NCBI GenBank assembly: GCA_016181175.1
Contig: JACOZV010000001.1
Span: forward strand, 259,519 to 323,518
Length of the DNA: 64,000 nt
Direction: 5' to 3'
DNA from: Candidatus Yanofskybacteria bacterium
Lineage (GTDB): Bacteria; Patescibacteriota; Minisyncoccia; 2-02-FULL-40-12; IGHO2-01-FULL-4-A
How positions within the stretch are numbered: the first letter of the stretch is position 1; every line of letters starts with the position of its first letter. The position numbers were made by a program, and so were the translations under genes. The notes below the pieces were generated by a model. That model was not told the origin of the DNA, made no database searches, and was given only the letters and a program-made list of their open reading frames with translations. Below, in pieces: positions 52,365-64,000 of this stretch.

Positions 52365-52398
52365 AACCGGCTTAAGCCGGTTTTATGGTTTATGAGGG

Positions 52399-52447
52399 TC
52401 CGTCCACCAGGAATCGAACCTGGAACCTTCTCCTTAAAAGGGAGCTG
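52399..52447 (-). repeat. duplicated 3' half (anticodon stem to 3' end) of tRNA-Lys, not a complete tRNA
   Basis: 49 nt identical to 52489-52537 region of the full gene. Confidence 0.8.
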
Positions 52448-52488
52448 TCCTGGTTTTGTAAACAAAATCGAGGATTCTCGATACAAAG

Positions 52489-52561
52489 TCCGTCCACCAG
52501 GAATCGAACCTGGAACCTTCTCCTTAAAAGGGAGCTGCTCTACCAATTGAGCTATGGACGG
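52489..52561 (-). tRNA. tRNA-Lys (anticodon UUU)
   Basis: manual fold: acceptor CCGTCCA/TGGACGG, U8, D-loop AATTGGTA, anticodon loop CUUUUAA, T-loop TTCGATT. Confidence 0.75.
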
Positions 52562-56855: not shown

Positions 56856-56903
56856 TTAGCCCCCTCCTCTTTGTTAGTATTAGTATATCAAATAAGTTAC
56901 GAT

Positions 56904-57818
56904 ATGTCAATATTTCTGCAATCCAAACAATGGATGGAATTTCAAAAGTCGCTGGGGCGGGAGGTTTTTGAATATGAGAAAGGGGGGATATCAGCCAAGA
57001 TAATAAAGCATGATTTACCACTCGGCAAGAATTACTTATACATTCCCTATGGGCCGGATATGGATTTTAACCAAATGATCGGCGGGTTCAAAAATCCGGT
57101 TGCTAATTTTGTCGGGTGGCTGCGCGAAGAAGCCAAAATGCGCAAATCTATTTTTGTAAAAATTGAACCGATGACCGACGGCGTGGCACAGGTATTGGCT
57201 GAACATAAATTTAAAAAATCTAAAAAAGAAGTCCAGCCTAGCAAAACTGTGGTTATTGATTTAAGCAAAGGCGAGGAAGAGTTACTTGCCGAGATGCACC
57301 ACAAAACCCGCTATAACATTGGGGTCGCTGACAGGCACGGCGTGGTTGTTGGCGAGCATAGCGACTCAGATTCTTTCTTGGGCTTACTTAAAAAAACTAC
57401 TAAAAGAGATAAGTTCAATCCGCACCCAGCTGATTATTATAAAAAACTTTTTGATTGCAGAGAATTGCAAACCAAACTATATTTTGCCAATCACAACGGT
57501 AAACCTGTTGCGGCGGCTTTAGTTTTAGTTTTTGGCGATACCGGTTACTATCTCCATGGCGCGTCAGACTATGAGTATCGGTCGTTGATGGCGCCCTATG
57601 CCCTTCATTGGCACATAATTAAACAATTAAAAACTGAAGGATTGAAACAGTATGACTTTTGGGGTATAGATGCCCGTAAGTGGCCCGGCGTCACCCGTTT
57701 CAAGCTGGGCTGGGGAGGTAAAACCGTTGAATACCCGGGTTCATTCAATTTGCCTATTTCTAAGTTTTGGTATATGGTTTATAAAATAACTCAAAAGTTG
57801 TCAGTAATACGCATTTGA
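56904..57818 (+). CDS. FemAB-family peptidoglycan interpeptide-bridge aminoacyltransferase-like protein
   Basis: N-terminal FLQSKQWMEFQK; Fem fold length. Confidence 0.65.
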   Translation: MSIFLQSKQWMEFQKSLGREVFEYEKGGISAKIIKHDLPLGKNYLYIPYGPDMDFNQMIGGFKNPVANFVGWLREEAKMRKSIFVKIEPMTDGVAQVLAEHKFKKSKKEVQPSKTVVIDLSKGEEELLAEMHHKTRYNIGVADRHGVVVGEHSDSDSFLGLLKKTTKRDKFNPHPADYYKKLFDCRELQTKLYFANHNGKPVAAALVLVFGDTGYYLHGASDYEYRSLMAPYALHWHIIKQLKTEGLKQYDFWGIDARKWPGVTRFKLGWGGKTVEYPGSFNLPISKFWYMVYKITQKLSVIRI

Positions 57819-57879: not shown

Positions 57880-59703
57880 ATGCCGGAACAGACACAGCCA
57901 CACCCGCTGCGCAGATTTATTATTTCCCTTAAGTTATACAGGGCACACATAGGATTGGGTAGTAACGAAAAGCTTATTAAGTTTGTTGATGAGCTTGTTC
58001 AAAGTGCTGAAAGAATTGAAACAAGGCAGGAGGCATCGGGCAGATCGGTTGGGTTAAGTTTTGAGTTTTTAGATTCAGTTTGCGGTTTCCTTTATAACCA
58101 ACTGCAAAAAGTAACAGCAGAAAACAATAAAAATAAGGCCGAAGCCAATAAATTATTGGAAAACCTGAAAAGTGCCGTTGAAGAAATAAAAGCTCTTCAA
58201 CGCCCTCCCCATTCGTTTGTTTTTTTTCAGAAGTTGGAAGAAAGAGGTGGCGAATTTTGGATTCGTACAAAAGATAGTACTGCTTTAGTATTTTCAGACG
58301 AATTGGTTGAGAAACTAAAAACCGCCAAAGCGGGCCAAAAGGTTCGGCTCAACGAATCCGGTGTAGCCATAGAATTGTTGGACGAGTTTGATAAAGACGG
58401 CGACATGGTGCAAGTTCTCGAGTTGTTGGGTGACAACCGATTGAGGGTTAGCCAAGAAAATAGGGGTGAAAGCATAGTTTTTATTTCTCCTTGTGTCCAA
58501 GAGGCGGATCTCAAAATAGGCGATAAGGTTTTACTTTCGCGATATAACAATTTAGTTACTGAAAAATTGTCCAGCTCCGAAGTAACCGAACTGGTTTTGC
58601 ATAAAGTTCCTAATTATACCTGGGATGATATTGGTGGTTTGGAAGAACAAATTGGTGCGTGGCGGGACGAAGTTGAAACCAACCTGGTTGATCCCGAATC
58701 AGCCAAAATTTACGGAATTGAGCAAACGAAAGGCGTTTTAATTACCGGTCCGCCCGGAGTCGGTAAGACTTTTCTCGTAAAAGTCGCGCTTAGCGAAACC
58801 GTAAAGTTTGTTAATCAGCAAACAGGCAGAAATATCGAGGGTTTTTATATCCTTGTAAACGGTCCAGCCGATATTTTGCGCGGTATTGTGGGGGATTCGC
58901 CGCGGCGAATCCAATATCTTTTCGCTGAAGCCAAAAGAAGGGCCAAGGAAGGCCATTTGGTTTTTATAATTTTGGATGAGTTCGAATCGTTATTTAGAAT
59001 ACGCGGCTCAATGGTTTTGGATGCCGGGGTTGGCAATGAAGATGTTAACCAGTTAAATGCTGAAATGGACGGCATTGAAGAATTGGATGGCGTACTGGTT
59101 GTGGCTTTGTCAAACAGGGCTGACCTAATTGACCCCGCCGTAATCAGACCCGGCAGGTTTGATCTCAAGATAGAAATTCCGAGATATGATAAAAAAACTG
59201 CCGCCAAAGTCTTTAGCAAATACATCAAACCGACACTCAAGTTCCATCACCAATATAAAAATCAAGACCCGGAACAAACTGCAAACCTGTTTGTTAACAA
59301 CATCGTTGATCTGTGTTATGACAGTCAGAGACCAGAAAATCAGCTGGCAGAAGTCATAGATGATGACTCCGGAGAATCTATCGTGTTCACTATTGGCAAC
59401 TTTATGTCCGGAGCTTTGATTAAAAACATAGTTTCAAGGGCAAAAAAAATTGCCCGTCGCCGGTTTGTGAATATTCCCAAAGAACAAGGCGAGAAAAGAG
59501 AATTAGAAGGGCTTATGTTGGACGACTTTTTCCAATCCATTGCAATAATTATCAGAAGCGAAATTAAATTACCGACCGGCGAGCAGGCACTAGAAGAATG
59601 GCTTCAAATTGAAGGTTATCAACACAGAAAAATAAGAAGAATGCGTTTTCTTTTGGACAAGAAAGATCCGTCCCGGACACCGGAACGCAGGGTCATGTCT
59701 TAA
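57880..59703 (+). CDS. proteasome-associated AAA ATPase (ARC/Mpa-like): coiled coil + OB-like region + AAA module
   Basis: GPPGVGKT Walker A, IILDEF Walker B, N-terminal coiled coil. Confidence 0.75.
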   Translation: MPEQTQPHPLRRFIISLKLYRAHIGLGSNEKLIKFVDELVQSAERIETRQEASGRSVGLSFEFLDSVCGFLYNQLQKVTAENNKNKAEANKLLENLKSAVEEIKALQRPPHSFVFFQKLEERGGEFWIRTKDSTALVFSDELVEKLKTAKAGQKVRLNESGVAIELLDEFDKDGDMVQVLELLGDNRLRVSQENRGESIVFISPCVQEADLKIGDKVLLSRYNNLVTEKLSSSEVTELVLHKVPNYTWDDIGGLEEQIGAWRDEVETNLVDPESAKIYGIEQTKGVLITGPPGVGKTFLVKVALSETVKFVNQQTGRNIEGFYILVNGPADILRGIVGDSPRRIQYLFAEAKRRAKEGHLVFIILDEFESLFRIRGSMVLDAGVGNEDVNQLNAEMDGIEELDGVLVVALSNRADLIDPAVIRPGRFDLKIEIPRYDKKTAAKVFSKYIKPTLKFHHQYKNQDPEQTANLFVNNIVDLCYDSQRPENQLAEVIDDDSGESIVFTIGNFMSGALIKNIVSRAKKIARRRFVNIPKEQGEKRELEGLMLDDFFQSIAIIIRSEIKLPTGEQALEEWLQIEGYQHRKIRRMRFLLDKKDPSRTPERRVMS

Positions 59704-59745
59704 TAAAATAAATAAAACCTCGCTTTACTTGGCGAGGTTTTTTAC
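59704..59745 (+). terminator. rho-independent terminator
   Basis: cctcgctttacttggcgagg + T-run. Confidence 0.6.
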
Positions 59746-59789
59746 TTAGAGTGGTTTAATTAGTGCAGATCTTTAAAAACGAGAGGAAT

Positions 59790-61445
59790 ATGAGTATTAA
59801 AAAAATTGTTGGAATAGAAACCGAGCTAAGACTTGACTGCGTCGATCCCGAAAATGACAAAAACCGAAAGAATTCTGGAGAATTGGAAGATTACGTGCTT
59901 CCGGGGAGTGTTGTTAAAAACGCGTTGAGCCAATCTGGTGGAGTTGTCGCCGTTGGTTCCGACACGCAACCCGCAAATTTGCAAAAAAATTTGGCGATTG
60001 TGGAAAATTTAAAAAAACTTTATCCGTCGTCACAAAAAGCCATACAAGAGCATTTGGAAAACAGAAGCGCAAGAAAGCGGGACCGTGGCATATCTGAAGA
60101 AGACTGCCTTGATACATATCAAAGATTTGGCCTTTCGGGCGGTTATACGTTTTCGGGTTTTAGGATTTATGTTGATGGAACTCATCCCGAAGTGTCAACG
60201 CCTGAATGTGCCACTCCTTTTGATTTGGTTTGCCGGCAAAAAGCCGGGGAAAGGATCATAGAAGAGGGCAGAAAGAAAACCGAAGAAGAAACCGGACGAC
60301 GGATTACGCTTTCGGCTGACAACAGCGACGGTTTGGGGGGAAGCTGGGGTTCTCACGAAAATTACCTTGTAAGCGATGAGCTTTTCGAGAGCCTTACTGA
60401 GGAAGGATGCCACCGTCACGATTTTCGCAGAACCCTTAATTCATATCAGGACTTTTGGGCCTCTTTTTTGGTGACACGTTTTGTATTTTGTGGTTCTGGC
60501 AAAATGGGCAGTGAAATTGACCAGGATTTGGAAAATAAATTTTTGATTTCGCAAAGAGCGGAGTTTATAAGCTGTAATTTTAGTCATAGAACCATGGAAC
60601 ACCGTCCCATTATAAATCTGCGCGATATTCCTTATGTTGGACCCGGATTTGGCCGGAGGCTGCACGTAATAATTGGTGACTCTAACATGTGTGAACCGGC
60701 AATTTACCTAAAAGTTGGCACGGCGATGATAATGCTGATGATGTTAGAAGATAATTTTATTTCTGAAGGTTCTTTCCCTATTTTTGAAAAACCGGTTAAA
60801 GCCTTGCAAACCGTCATGTCTGACGTTGATTGCTCCAATCTCCTAGATGTCTATGTTGGCGGTCAGTTTAGACACATGACCGCGATAGATATACAGAAGT
60901 TTTTTTGCGAATTGGCGGCAAAATGGCTTGAAGAACGTTTTAAAAATACCAGCGACAAAAAATCTGTTTCTTGGGTTTCGGAAGTTTTGTTCAGATTAGA
61001 TCAAGTTTTGACCAAGTTAAAAAATGATCCCATGGATCTTTTTGGCACAATTGACTGGGTGACCAAGTATGGCTTATGTTGTTCTGAACTTGAAAACCGA
61101 AATGCTGGTTGGACAGACGTAACCTCGCGTTCGAACCCGCTATTTCGCCGTTTGATCGGGATATGCGGCGCATATCATAGGTTAGACGAACTTGGCATAT
61201 ACAATAAATTAGAAGAAGCTCAAGAAGTTGAACGTATTGTTCAGGACGTTAATATTCACATTGCTTGTCTTGAGCCGCCGCAAGGCACCAGGGCTTTTGA
61301 GAGGGGCAAATTTCTTAGACATTTCAGGGACGACATATATCTTGTAAACTGGAACCTCATTTGCATTAAACGCAATCCTTACAAAATATTTCTAAACAGT
61401 CCATATTCATTTTCACCCGCTTTAGATGTGGAGCAAGAATCATGA
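59790..61445 (+). CDS. Pup-ligase/deamidase (PafA/Dop) family homologue 1, divergent N-terminal motif
   Basis: IVGIETELRL (instead of ETEYG), HPEVSTPECATPFD; SD gagagga. Confidence 0.65.
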   Translation: MSIKKIVGIETELRLDCVDPENDKNRKNSGELEDYVLPGSVVKNALSQSGGVVAVGSDTQPANLQKNLAIVENLKKLYPSSQKAIQEHLENRSARKRDRGISEEDCLDTYQRFGLSGGYTFSGFRIYVDGTHPEVSTPECATPFDLVCRQKAGERIIEEGRKKTEEETGRRITLSADNSDGLGGSWGSHENYLVSDELFESLTEEGCHRHDFRRTLNSYQDFWASFLVTRFVFCGSGKMGSEIDQDLENKFLISQRAEFISCNFSHRTMEHRPIINLRDIPYVGPGFGRRLHVIIGDSNMCEPAIYLKVGTAMIMLMMLEDNFISEGSFPIFEKPVKALQTVMSDVDCSNLLDVYVGGQFRHMTAIDIQKFFCELAAKWLEERFKNTSDKKSVSWVSEVLFRLDQVLTKLKNDPMDLFGTIDWVTKYGLCCSELENRNAGWTDVTSRSNPLFRRLIGICGAYHRLDELGIYNKLEEAQEVERIVQDVNIHIACLEPPQGTRAFERGKFLRHFRDDIYLVNWNLICIKRNPYKIFLNSPYSFSPALDVEQES

Positions 61446-62956
61446 AACCACTAACCAGTTTTGCATGTGAGCTGGACCGGATTTACGGTACGGAAACAGA
61501 ATACGGCCTCTATTGGAATACCAATAAAACCGACATTTTTGATTTGATGGATAGAAATTTTGCTCTATCCATTACGGATTATGAAAACCTTTTTAACTGT
61601 TTTGATAACTTAAATTTTAGTCGATTGTCCGAATTTTTTGTTCAAAATGGCGGTTTAATCAAGAAAGATAATCCAAATGATTACTGTGATTGTACGCCAG
61701 AATTTGCCACACCGGAATGTAAATCAGCCAGAGACGCGGTTTGTTGGGAAAAAGCCGGGGAAATAATAATGCGGGGCTTGTTCGATCTTTCAGGTGCGAA
61801 TAATTCTGTTTTTTTGATGGTCAAGCACGGCCGCGGCATGGCAAATTATTGGGGTTTGGACGGCACAGTAGTGGAAGTTTCTTGCGGCCATCATGAAAAT
61901 TATTCATATGACGAAGAACTTAAAGCAAGATTAAAAAAAGACAGCTGGGAATCCTGCGTATTTGTTTCGTTTCTTGCCTCGCGTATTCTATTTAGCGGAG
62001 CAGGTTGGTTGGATTCAAAAGGTTTGGGTTATAAGTTAAGTCAACGGGTTGATTTTTTAGAACAAATTAAAGGTTTGAGCACAACCGAAAAACGAGCCCT
62101 GATTTGTACTCGTGATGAACCATTGGGAACACTAAGTCCGCCACGATTGCATCTTATTGCCGGCGATCATTTAATGTCGGAAGTGGCCTTGTATTTAACC
62201 CTTGGATCCACGGGTTTGGTTGTGAGGATGTTGGAATCGGGATACGATTTTGCCGGTGTGCCAATTTTGGAAAATCCGATTTTGGCCTTGCGTATATTTA
62301 ATTCGGACCCGTTGTTAAAAAATAAGGCAATGCTTAGCGGACTCCAAAAAGAAATAACTGCTCTTGAAATTCAGGAATATTTTTGTGCCAGAGCCGGTGA
62401 GTTTATTAATTGTAACCCGTCGACTGAAGAAGAAAATGATATTGTAGCCTATTGGGCAAGCGTGCTGAAGCGTCTCAAAAAAGATATTTACTCTCTTTAT
62501 GGTGAACTCGACTGGGTTACCAAATTGTGTTTAATGGAATCTTATTTGGAAAAATACGGCATTTGTCCCGAGAGGATTAGGGAGACCAATGGTTTGCCGC
62601 TAGAAACTTTAAATTGTTGCATGAGCCTTGATCTGACATATCATTTTATCACGCCTGACGGCCTGTATAACAAACTTAAAGAAGCGGGTTTGATCAAAAG
62701 GCTTCTGTCTGACGAAGAAATAACTCATGCCGTGACCAATCCGCCGCAAGATACCAGAGCAAGAATTAGGGGAGAAATGATTCAACTTATGAAGTCTGGC
62801 AAAATAGAAGGCCGAGTTGGCAATTGGAATAGCTTTAGCTTAAGTGGTCTTCCGCCGCACCAGCGTTTGGTTAGATCCGTCATAGGCATGGAAGATCCTT
62901 TTGATTTTTATTGCAAAGTATGGCAAGATCAAAAAAGATCATTAGGCTTCTCTTAA
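61442..62956 (+). CDS. Pup-ligase/deamidase (PafA/Dop) family homologue 2
   Basis: YGTETEYGLYW and TPEFATPECKSARD match PafA/Dop N-terminal signatures; ATGA overlap with homologue 1. Confidence 0.7.
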   Translation: MKPLTSFACELDRIYGTETEYGLYWNTNKTDIFDLMDRNFALSITDYENLFNCFDNLNFSRLSEFFVQNGGLIKKDNPNDYCDCTPEFATPECKSARDAVCWEKAGEIIMRGLFDLSGANNSVFLMVKHGRGMANYWGLDGTVVEVSCGHHENYSYDEELKARLKKDSWESCVFVSFLASRILFSGAGWLDSKGLGYKLSQRVDFLEQIKGLSTTEKRALICTRDEPLGTLSPPRLHLIAGDHLMSEVALYLTLGSTGLVVRMLESGYDFAGVPILENPILALRIFNSDPLLKNKAMLSGLQKEITALEIQEYFCARAGEFINCNPSTEEENDIVAYWASVLKRLKKDIYSLYGELDWVTKLCLMESYLEKYGICPERIRETNGLPLETLNCCMSLDLTYHFITPDGLYNKLKEAGLIKRLLSDEEITHAVTNPPQDTRARIRGEMIQLMKSGKIEGRVGNWNSFSLSGLPPHQRLVRSVIGMEDPFDFYCKVWQDQKRSLGFS

Positions 62957-62967
62957 GAGGTGATGAA

Positions 62968-63150
62968 ATGTCGCAGGAAGAAAAAACCAAAAAAAGGCCT
63001 GGCGATAATCGCGAACCGCAAGAAGAATCAAGAAAAAAAGCAGAACGAGAGCGAAGATCAAAAAAGCATAAAGACATTCTTGAAGACCTTCAAGATGTAA
63101 TAGGTGAAACGGAAAAACAAAGGCAGAAGGGCCGCAAGGGCGGTCAGTAA
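62968..63150 (+). CDS. prokaryotic ubiquitin-like protein (Pup/UBact-like), 60 aa, C-terminal GGQ
   Basis: disordered K/R/E-rich N-terminus, ILEDLQDVIGETE helix, ...KGRKGGQ-stop; SD agaggtga. Confidence 0.65.
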   Translation: MSQEEKTKKRPGDNREPQEESRKKAERERRSKKHKDILEDLQDVIGETEKQRQKGRKGGQ

Positions 63151-63151
63151 A

Positions 63152-63177
63152 GCGGATTTAATCCGCTTTTTTTCTTG
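63152..63177 (+). terminator. rho-independent terminator
   Basis: agcggatttaatccgct + T-run. Confidence 0.6.
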
Positions 63178-63241: not shown

Positions 63242-64000
63242 ATGGAATTTCTAACCGCCGAAGAGGTTTTTGATAAATCTAGTGCTGAAGCGTTTAAGGG
63301 GTTAAATGATACAAATGGCGTCAGTATTGCTGACATTGGAAAGTTTTTATTGCACGGCACGACTGATTTAGCCATTCTTTTTGAGAGCGGGATAGTGTTA
63401 GCTACAGACGGCCGAGCCGCCGGACAAGATATGCATATCGGAGATGAATTTTTTGACAAAACATGCATGCTTGATAGTCACTCCCTGATTGCAATTTCTG
63501 GCGTTCCCGGGCTGGGTTTTTCCATGGCGAAACTAATAAGAGCAAGATTCATGTTTTCAGCAATGGACCACGAAAACCTTCCGCTTCCTGCCGAGACCAA
63601 AGCCAATGTCGTTGCCGCAAGCATCAGGGATAATTTGGGTTTGGTGTTAACTCACAAACTGGTTGTTCAGCCAATTTTGGCAATTTTTGATTTAAGTGAA
63701 TCCAAACCGTGCGGTAAAATTTTTAGCATCTGGATTGACGGAACGGTGCAAAAAGGAAACCGCTACGTTACTTGCGGTTCTGGCGGTCAAGTCGCGGACG
63801 TTGTTCTGGACCTGGCCCTTAACGTTATAAAAAAGAAACCGGACCAACTTTCACTCCAGGATGCCCAACATCTAGCGGTCTTAGCGCTTGAGTATGCCCA
63901 CAAAAGAGATGCGGCCACCGGAGGAAAGATATTTATGCGCGTTATTACCAAACACGGCGTAGAGTCCGTTTCGGAAGAAGAGATAAGCGGGTTTAGCGAA
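63242..64000 (+). CDS. prcB: 20S proteasome beta subunit (partial, runs off window)
   Basis: propeptide then HGTTDLAILFESGIVLATDGRA (N-terminal Thr nucleophile context); ORF open at window end. Confidence 0.75.
   Translation, partial: MEFLTAEEVFDKSSAEAFKGLNDTNGVSIADIGKFLLHGTTDLAILFESGIVLATDGRAAGQDMHIGDEFFDKTCMLDSHSLIAISGVPGLGFSMAKLIRARFMFSAMDHENLPLPAETKANVVAASIRDNLGLVLTHKLVVQPILAIFDLSESKPCGKIFSIWIDGTVQKGNRYVTCGSGGQVADVVLDLALNVIKKKPDQLSLQDAQHLAVLALEYAHKRDAATGGKIFMRVITKHGVESVSEEEISGFSE

Follow-up and report, generated by a model that had tools for sequence, protein, structure and literature searches.

Within a 64,000-nucleotide window of a Candidatus Yanofskybacteria metagenome-assembled genome (MAG), spanning positions 259,519 to 323,518 of contig JACOZV010000001.1, lies a gene that we call H1 (59790..61445, + strand), whose 551-residue product belongs to the family of Pup ligases and deamidases. 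Judged from its sequence and predicted fold, H1 is an intact and conserved, yet unusual, relative of Dop situated in a Pup–proteasome operon, where it is accompanied by a second paralogue (H2), a gene for a Pup-like tag, and genes for the proteasomal ATPase Mpa and the proteasome beta subunit PrcB. Pfam (PF03136), an AlphaFold2 (AF2) model, Foldseek comparisons and a maximum-likelihood (ML) test with resampling of estimated log-likelihoods (RELL) place it as a divergent member of the Dop lineage, and we consider H1 to be, probably, the Dop-type deamidase/depupylase of its lineage, operating beneath a remodeled lid.

The translation of H1 opens with MSIKKIVGIETELRLDCV. The ATG at 59790 is favored as the start over an upstream GTG at 59763 because all relatives begin MS(I/V)xKI(V/A)G and because GAGAGG precedes the ATG. 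PF03136 (Pup_ligase) matches residues 5-523 with 312.1 bits (cut-off 25), and the AF2 model, with a predicted local distance difference test (pLDDT) score of 89.6 and a predicted template modeling (pTM) score of 0.92, has a two-domain fold with a beta-sheet cradle. When this model was compared with the PDB using Foldseek, the first 11 matches were all Dop or PafA, followed by YbdK, GCL and GS. The public record of H1 (MBI2062913.1) carries the NCBI name ‘PafA2 family protein’ and shares one 374-kb contig of the Candidatus Yanofskybacteria (Patescibacteria) MAG with the records of the tag (MBI2062915.1) and Mpa (MBI2062912.1). A pseudogene or a sequencing error was considered and is ruled out, the identical protein being present on two independent Logan contigs in addition to the NCBI MAG. 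In a first homology search H1 returned no self-match; its 90% cluster is represented by a 37-residue fragment (P0338).

The departure of H1 from the family norm begins at the N-terminus. The GhExE ATP/Mg motif, GIETE (residues 8-12), runs straight into L13-R14-L15-D16 (59811..59837, + strand, by direct reading of the sequence), such that H1 has GIETELRLD where characterized Dop and PafA proteins have G-x-E-x-E-(Y/F)-G, the four residues replacing Y-G-(I/L)-(S/T). Direct translation thus bears out the ETELRL that an earlier sequence-only reading had remarked upon in place of ETEYG. That reading took the Tyr-Gly pair to be conserved, and our survey agrees: Gly occupies the second position in all 34 canonical sequences (21/21 Dop and 13/13 PafA), is preceded by Tyr or Phe in 32 of them and by one Leu and one Val in the others, and the three PDB references (AcelDop, MtbDop and CgluPafA) all carry E-x-E-Y-G. 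In a census of approximately 320 family members the second position was G, A or S in about 94%, with Arg confined to the H1 clade and two unrelated representatives. Across the wider family, A, S, N, D and R are also found at the Gly position, in divergent members.

E-L-R-(L/A)-D recurs in 15 of the 17 known members of the H1 clade, at 36-66% identity, and the remaining two likewise have no Tyr-Gly: P0006 reads ETEFR, with the Arg kept, and P0011 reads ESEIW. In the clade alignment R14 is present in 13 of 14 members and D16 in all of them. The Arg is encoded by AGA in four genes and by CGT in one, while the Leu and Asp codons differ synonymously. On these alignments and codons, we read Leu-Arg as what it most plainly is, a clade character held by purifying selection and not the outcome of decay, chance or error. 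The clade is rare: when 1.84 billion cluster representatives were searched exhaustively with HMMER, about 3750 representatives of the family came up, only about 10 of them full-length H1-type clusters (at least 302 bits), and the next score, 260 bits, belongs to a Tyr-Gly form. A scan of genome contigs with back-translated H1-clade patterns gave no H1-type gene among the best 80 of more than 600 loci, the matches being canonical actinobacterial dop genes. Leu-Arg, to which the sequence-only reading drew attention, is only one of about 15 swaps fixed in the clade at otherwise conserved positions, namely (in AcelDop numbering) Y11L, G12R, S14D, N82G, I84Y, N87S, A89F, H95G, A96T/S, Y152W, L173W, E229I, H231Y, W343L and D395R.

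The catalytic core is kept. All Mg ligands are invariant in the H1 clade, corresponding to E8, E10, Y92, E99, H155 and H241 of AcelDop, where these roles and that of the catalytic D94 have been described (PMC8599861); in H1's own numbering, G8-I-E10-T-E12, Y127, D129, E134, H189 and H292 are clade-invariant. The catalytic strand and loop, Y127-V-D129-G-T-H-P-E134 (60168..60191, + strand, aligned to AcelDop, MtbDop and CgluPafA), retains the Mg-ligand Tyr and Glu and the catalytic Asp, with D94 kept at the exact Dop spacing D-x-x-H-P-E, and replaces Dop H95-A96 with G-T. Also invariant are R90, H97, E104, D146, E156, N157, R180, R205, T217, R221, N225, R227, D228, R239, D246, R433, R437 and W453 (AcelDop numbering). 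In AcelDop, R90 stacks on Y92 and forms a salt bridge to the alpha-phosphate, R227 and H241 hold the catalytic phosphate, and T217 makes a hydrogen bond to the C-terminal residue of the tag (PMC8599861). A downstream PE(Y/F)xTPEC block that had been ascribed to both paralogues holds for H2 (PEFATPEC); H1 has a variant with Val, PEVSTPEC.

Because the Mg ligands and the catalytic Asp are all kept, H1 is very unlikely to be dead, and with D94 and the conserved Arg and Asn residues also invariant across the clade, the earlier suggestion of a ‘catalytically altered regulator’ is not supported. The case for a catalytically dead pseudoenzyme or regulator, created by the loss of Tyr-Gly after GhExE, would rest on the invariance of the Gly throughout the canonical Dop and PafA proteins surveyed, on the bulk and rarity of the Arg that replaces it, and on H1 scoring under the NCBIfam equivalog cut-offs. 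A dead enzyme would not, however, be expected to hold its metal ligands, catalytic Asp and conserved Arg, His and Asn residues invariant at a divergence reaching down to 36% identity. Moreover, the other non-Gly residues listed above occupy the same position elsewhere among divergent family members, and a Gln-ended tag needs an active deamidase, for which just two paralogues are present. We therefore regard this explanation as highly improbable.

Alignment to characterized PafA and Dop proteins, by which the sequence-only reading had proposed to place the swaps in the active site, showed that the Mg ligands and D94 are untouched and that several swaps fall near the nucleotide pocket or the catalytic loop (G12R, N87S, A89F, H95G, Y152W, E229I, H231Y and D395R). 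These, among the roughly 15 fixed in the clade, lend themselves to an explanation in which H1 is active with shifted chemistry or specificity, whether as a bifunctional transamidase using the tag Gln directly, as a depupylase gated by a helical lid or as a regulated partner of H2. There is a precedent in a Dop mutant with mixed Dop/PafA residues and the Dop-loop, which performs a mixed reaction leading from PupQ directly to the conjugate (PMC7947786). The start codon of H2 overlaps the stop codon of H1 by 4 nt (ATGA), and translational coupling of the two could be taken in the same sense; the overlap is not conserved, though, being replaced by a 36-nt gap in the related locus L001. Since two paralogues and a Gln-ended tag are read most simply as one hydrolase and one ligase, we view a shift in chemistry as unlikely.

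The earlier proposal that one copy is Dop-like is upheld for H1, which is nearer to Dop by sequence, profile and fold, lies directly after mpa and is lengthened chiefly where Dop carries its loop. The best-scoring NCBIfam model is that for Dop (TIGR03688, 249.2 bits, cut-off 492.3), ahead of PafA (TIGR03686, 212.6 bits, cut-off 551.3). Searches of PDB sequences with phmmer gave Dop 216 bits and PafA 138 bits, and an hhalign comparison of the H1-clade profile scored 800 against Dop and 578 against PafA. Mean identity of the clade is 34.0% to Dop and 31.6% to PafA, and the Foldseek template modeling (TM) scores of the H1 model are 0.81-0.92 for Dop versus 0.73-0.75 for PafA. Bootstrap support for the H1 clade is 100% in a neighbor-joining (NJ) tree, which puts it on the Dop side, adjoining Patescibacterial Tyr-Gly forms. 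The ML test, in which 105 backbone topologies of 30 taxa with fixed within-group subtrees were compared under a BLOSUM62-derived reversible model with four gamma categories, returned a RELL value of 0.98 for Dop + (Tyr-Gly forms + H1 clade). Two hallmarks of PafA are missing from H1, the one-residue insertion (D-V-G-S-H-P-E-Y-A-T) and the HxWEGxSSATTRSR helix, and its insert is the longest of all members. Of the residues that Hecht et al. 2021 list as specific to Dop (S27, V31, I84/85, V93, H95, A96, S101, P103, S452 and the alpha-loop positions F208/E210/G214/L215/E216/K220; PMC7947786), H1 is Dop-like at V31, V93, S101-T-P103 and F208.

Several observations count against a Dop-type deamidase. 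The deep nodes of the NJ tree are weak (20-50% support), and the ML test uses a simple, home-made model with fixed subtrees. H1 lies well under the TIGR03688 Dop equivalog cut-off (249 versus 492 bits) and is PafA-like, or neither, at S27P, I84Y, H95G, A96T, E210S, G214S, L215H, E216R and S452N. In the alpha-loop region, F259-R272 together with R278-D-I280-P-Y282 (60564..60635, + strand; alignment and AF2), T268 and R272 are kept and the Dop signature E210/G214/L215/E216 is lost; AF2 gives strand and loop with no helix at residues 260-272, but does the same for H2 and so does not discriminate. Finally, the tags of the related loci L007 and L008 already end in GGE, yet H1 is kept. The last point fits a role as depupylase, with deamidation not the only constraint on the enzyme. 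As to the residues of Hecht et al., the signals are mixed for both H1 and H2, and because Gly95 also occurs in some named Nitrospira Dop sequences, position 95 is not decisive outside Actinobacteria.

The most extensive rebuilding of H1 is found where Dop carries its loop. H1 is the longer paralogue, the earlier estimate of about 50 residues being close to the measured 47 (551 vs 504). Relative to AcelDop, it gains approximately 33 residues at the Dop-loop site, 17 after HENYLV, 9 near residue 390 and a further 9 before Y462-H-R, and its C-terminus is shorter. The spacing from G8 to Y127, that is from GhExE to the Y-x-D strand, is 119 in H1, 86-87 in Dop, 48 in PafA and 65 in H2, making the H1 insert 33 residues longer than that of Dop. 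This expanded insert (residues ~19-118; 59844..60143, + strand), delimited by spacing, AF2 secondary structure and clade invariants, is predicted to form four helices (23-48, 61-77, 81-93 and 103-112; pLDDT 58-96), unlike the canonical Dop-loop with its large share of disorder, and in or beside it H88, Q111 and G114-x-S-G-G-Y119 are invariant in the clade. Residues 15-120 searched on their own against Pfam and PDB sequences gave chance-level matches only (E >= 0.08). The second addition, specific to the H1 clade (residues ~197-222; 60378..60455, + strand; from alignments), is in part modeled with low confidence, pLDDT falling below 50 at residues 207-212.

The canonical Dop-loop is a conserved stretch of about 40 residues before strand beta2 that contains W47, F/Y49 and an acidic stretch (PMC8599861). 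In AcelDop, W47 stacks on H231 and W453 when the loop is inserted and on R90 when Pup is bound, while F49 stacks on H155 (PMC8599861). The H1 insert contains neither a single Trp nor the RWD(Y/F)E motif, the canonical W47/F49 are absent, and the residues to which the loop docks are replaced (H95G, E229I and H231Y). Hence the search for a Dop-loop insertion that had been recommended succeeds as regards position, the extra length being mainly at that site, and fails as regards identity, the segment being 33 residues longer, predicted to be helical, devoid of W47/F49 and not recognizable as a Dop-loop. Since I/N229, Y231 and a long insert, together with Dop-loop remnants, are found even in the Patescibacterial Tyr-Gly forms P0014 and P0070, the sequences suggest that remodeling was stepwise and Leu-Arg-x-Asp a late addition. 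We infer that Leu13, Arg14 and Asp16 belong to a clade-wide, jointly inherited remodeling of the regulatory lid that covers the active site. It is tempting to speculate that Arg14, at the end of strand beta1, anchors the insert, or that it takes over the role of the lost loop or of His95 near the nucleotide and catalytic loop.

If H1 is indeed the Dop-type deamidase/depupylase of this lineage, ATP and Mg would be bound in the beta-sheet cradle and the catalytic phosphate formed there. D129 would then deamidate the C-terminal Gln of the tag, converting GGQ to GGE, and H1 would also remove the tag from lysines. H2 would phosphorylate the Glu form of the tag and transfer the tag to target lysines, after which the conjugates would be unfolded by Mpa and passed on to the 20S proteasome. 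As a gate, the Dop-loop may have been replaced by the helical insert, with Arg14 and Asp16, and possibly Arg464 (D395R), wiring it to strand beta1. The earlier argument that a deamidase is required where Pup ends in Gln applies here, the tag of this operon ending in GGQ.

The same parts could be assigned the other way around, H1 being the Pup ligase and H2 the deamidase/depupylase. In H1 the catalytic Asp is followed by G-(T/S) and the I84 position is occupied by an aromatic residue, features that recall ‘VHA to LVGS’ and ‘I85F’, one mutational route that supported conversion of Dop to a ligase (PMC7947786); H1 has also lost the Dop alpha-loop signature. H2, for its part, has a Dop-like alpha-loop in the window (GLSTTEKR vs GLETTLKR), keeps E229 and gives a model slightly nearer to Dop than to PafA (TM 0.77-0.84 vs 0.75-0.76), and as deletion of the Dop-loop leaves Dop activity (PMC7947786), the missing loop does not exclude H2 as a Dop. 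Against this, by every similarity and tree measure H1 lies on the Dop side; its insert at the Dop-loop site, where a loop counteracted ligase activity in the conversion experiments (PMC7947786), is the largest; and it keeps V93 and S-T-P without the one-residue insertion of PafA. G95 is shared with the named Nitrospira Dop sequences mentioned above, the Dop-like alpha-loop of H2 is not conserved within the H2 clade, and H2 has PafA-like F/W84, A101 and a DPF + tail C-terminus. A swap of roles thus seems to us unlikely, and we retain H1 as the candidate hydrolase.

H2 (61442..62956, + strand) is the second and more aberrant family member, with 504 residues, a PF03136 score of 264 bits and, unlike H1, the N-terminal reading IYGTETEYGLY. 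It is 100% identical to P0121, a Candidatus Yanofskybacteria ‘PafA2 family protein’, scores 219 bits with the NCBIfam Dop model and 194 with that for PafA (both far under their cut-offs) and is modeled by AF2 with a pLDDT of 90.1, its Foldseek TM scores being those given above. The H2 clade has lost residues at positions common to Dop and PafA: Y92 is K, H or R, H97 is T, N143-N144 is H-G, D146 is variable, N225 is C, H231 is L and K257 is T. There is in addition a variable insertion of 8-25 residues right after the catalytic Asp and one of 11 residues before HHENY. Retained are E8, E10, D94, E99, H155, R205, T217, R221, R239, H241, R433 and R437. Positions 90 and 92 covary perfectly in H2 and its relatives P0122-P0131, which read either GGR-x-(Y/H/F) or GG(L/M/G)-x-(K/R), with the result that a basic residue beside the nucleotide is always kept. 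H2 therefore looks functional in these alignments despite its losses, and by the same comparison it is H2, not H1, that is the paralogue from which more of the universally conserved active-site residues have been lost.

Features that favor ligation by H2 are the Phe or Trp at the PafA Phe47 position, Ala101, the absence of a large insert and the PafA-like DPF + tail C-terminus, and H2 is on this basis the probable Pup ligase. The division into one Dop and one PafA is no more than a functional guess, since H2 is not a canonical PafA. Identity of the H2 clade is 31.0% to Dop and 30.9% to PafA, with 28.6% between H1 and H2 and 39.8% between canonical Dop and PafA. H2 as sister to canonical PafA received a RELL value of 0.004, the best unrooted backbone being ((Dop, H1 side), PafA, (short ‘C-T-R/K’ paralogues, (H2 clade, distant members))). 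This tree, unrooted by any external outgroup, is compatible either with a single ancient split of Dop from non-Dop, in which the ligase lineage evolved fast, or with an H2 older than the Dop/PafA duplication.

It is conceivable, though we hold it to be doubtful, that the pupylation enzymes of Patescibacteria are not a simple pair of Dop and PafA orthologues, H1 having a helical lid wired to Arg14/Asp16 and Arg464 and H2 belonging to a separate, non-PafA lineage. Were H2 indeed kin to the short non-actinobacterial ‘C-T-R/K’ paralogues, ligase activity would either predate the actinobacterial Dop/PafA split or have arisen independently. A further possibility under a non-orthologous pair would be that ligase and hydrolase roles are distributed unlike the textbook scheme.

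Upstream of H1 are a FemAB-like gene (56871-57818, + strand) and a gene for an Mpa/ARC-type proteasomal AAA+ ATPase of 607 residues (57880..59703, + strand; Pfam AAA and Prot_ATP_ID_OB_C), which NCBI lists simply as ‘AAA family ATPase’ (MBI2062912.1) and which scores 321 bits with NCBIfam TIGR03689 pup_AAA, under its cut-off of 505. Downstream of H2 is the gene for the Pup/UBact-like tag (62968..63150, + strand), recognized by its translation and by a position kept in relatives. It encodes 60 residues ending in ...KQRQKGRKGGQ, had no match in Pfam and none to Pup, and appears in NCBI as a ‘hypothetical protein’ (MBI2062915.1) called as a longer, 76-residue open reading frame. Its tail is strongly basic: EKQRQKGRKGGQ. 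The proteasome beta subunit gene prcB (63242..64000, + strand; Pfam Proteasome, 66.9 bits) runs past the end of the window, and the cleavage site of the PrcB propeptide is read as ...LHG|TTD.

The order mpa–H1–H2–pup–prcB–prcA is repeated in five related metagenomic loci (L001, L002, L003/4, L007 and L008/9), and in L001/L003 a complete prcB is followed by a prcA-like gene. As in other pupylation loci, where dop follows mpa, H1 is directly downstream of mpa; the place of H2 between H1 and pup is unlike that in Actinobacteria. No third family paralogue was found in the 8-10 kb of downstream sequence of L001 and L008, which leaves H1 and H2 alone to serve as hydrolase and ligase. The tags of this window and of L001 have GGQ as their last residues, that of L002 has SGQ, those of L007 and L008 have GGE and that of L005 has SGE, endings that by their sequence resemble UBact more closely than actinobacterial Pup.

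Between mpa and H1 a terminator scan detected a GC-rich hairpin followed by a U-tract, resembling a terminator or attenuator (59714..59741, + strand; RNA fold -16.1 kcal/mol, z = -3.0). A second terminator-like hairpin with a U-tract lies at 63149-63169, immediately 3' of the tag gene. Together the two may divide the operon into mpa, H1-H2-pup and prcBA, and could set subunit stoichiometry. Actinobacterial Mpa ends in GQYL, a proteasome-docking tail. In this clade the Mpa/ARC proteins of the window and of L001:8072-9916, L002:5939-7864, L007:4273-6273 and L008:4479-6320 end in ...VMS, ...IMS, ...PMA, ...NMA or ...SMS. The prcA-like genes barely match Pfam Proteasome. Docking onto the 20S particle may feasibly differ in this clade. 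Elsewhere in the window, the 3' part of a tRNA-Lys(TTT) gene (52488-52561, - strand) is repeated exactly, over 50 nt, at a distance of 90 nt (52398-52447, - strand), and this truncated duplicate may have been left behind by an old integration event at the tRNA.

Dop and PafA form a textbook pair of homologous enzymes that catalyze opposite reactions. The residues that distinguish hydrolase from ligase have been mapped only in Actinobacteria, and the H1/H2 lineage violates several of the resulting ‘rules’ with its catalytic core intact: a canonical Dop-loop is missing, the docking residues are changed, Arg stands in for Gly, and H2, the partner of H1, is itself without residues common to Dop and PafA. 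The lineage thus amounts to a natural experiment in which features each activity truly needs, and in how an active-site gate can be rebuilt. Our analysis adds the description of an entire Pup/UBact–proteasome operon from a bacterium of the candidate phyla radiation (CPR) with a reduced genome; in its public annotation ‘PafA2 family protein’ serves for either enzyme, and the tag is ‘hypothetical’. In practice this brings little beyond better annotation and a target for biochemistry, and no new kind of system is implied.

Searching the literature, we came across no publication dealing with the enzymes of pupylation in Patescibacteria or candidate phyla, and no account of the ETELR clade, of its helical insert or of the placing of the second paralogue apart from PafA. 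Beyond Actinobacteria, Pup-like systems as such have been recorded in Nitrospirae and sporadically in other phyla (PMC7947786, PMC3511204).

Compared with actinobacterial Dop (A. cellulolyticus 4B0R, 5LRT and 7OXV-7OYH; M. tuberculosis/M. smegmatis 9CKU), H1 shares the fold, GhExE, the Mg ligands, the catalytic Asp and its D-x-x-H-P-E spacing, the S-T-P-E-C block, an insertion between beta1 and beta2 and a place after mpa. It differs in having only about 27-29% identity, ETELR, no W47/F49, a longer insert that is predicted to be helical, the insertion of approximately 17 residues and a shorter C-terminus. With PafA (C. glutamicum 4B0T and 4BJR), H1 shares the fold, the catalytic residues, the Gly and hydroxyl residue that follow the catalytic Asp, and the aromatic character of the F47/F54 position; it differs in reading S-T in place of A-T, in its lack of the D-V-G-S-H insertion and of HxWEGxSSATTRSR, and in a very long insertion that has no counterpart in PafA.

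Closer to H1 are the Tyr-Gly ‘PafA2 family’ forms P0014, P0070 and P0185 (ETEYG/EHEYG) from Patescibacteria and other bacteria outside Actinobacteria, which branch next to the H1 clade as its closest outgroup in the NJ tree and have a GhExE-to-strand spacing of 90-109. Unlike H1, the Tyr-Gly forms keep Tyr-Gly, N87, A89 and D/N395 and have remnants of the Dop-loop (SPLD and a Trp). A locus of this type, L005 (6240-12610, Patescibacteria MAG GCA_022563755.1), has the same kind of operon as H1, mpa–paralogue 1 (EHEYG)–paralogue 2–prcB–prcA, followed by a 64-residue tag ending in KSGE. There the tag gene is 3' of the proteasome genes and not before them.

The report on UBact (Lehmann et al. 2017, BBRC) is said to describe Pup-like systems in Gram-negative bacteria and candidate phyla, reportedly with Candidatus Yanofskybacteria among the listed taxa, and its Dop/PafA paralogues, as far as we are aware, were not analyzed residue by residue. 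With such UBact-type systems the operon of this window has in common a basic-tailed tag ending in (G/S)G(Q/E) close to Mpa, homologues of Dop and PafA, and prcBA, all outside Actinobacteria.

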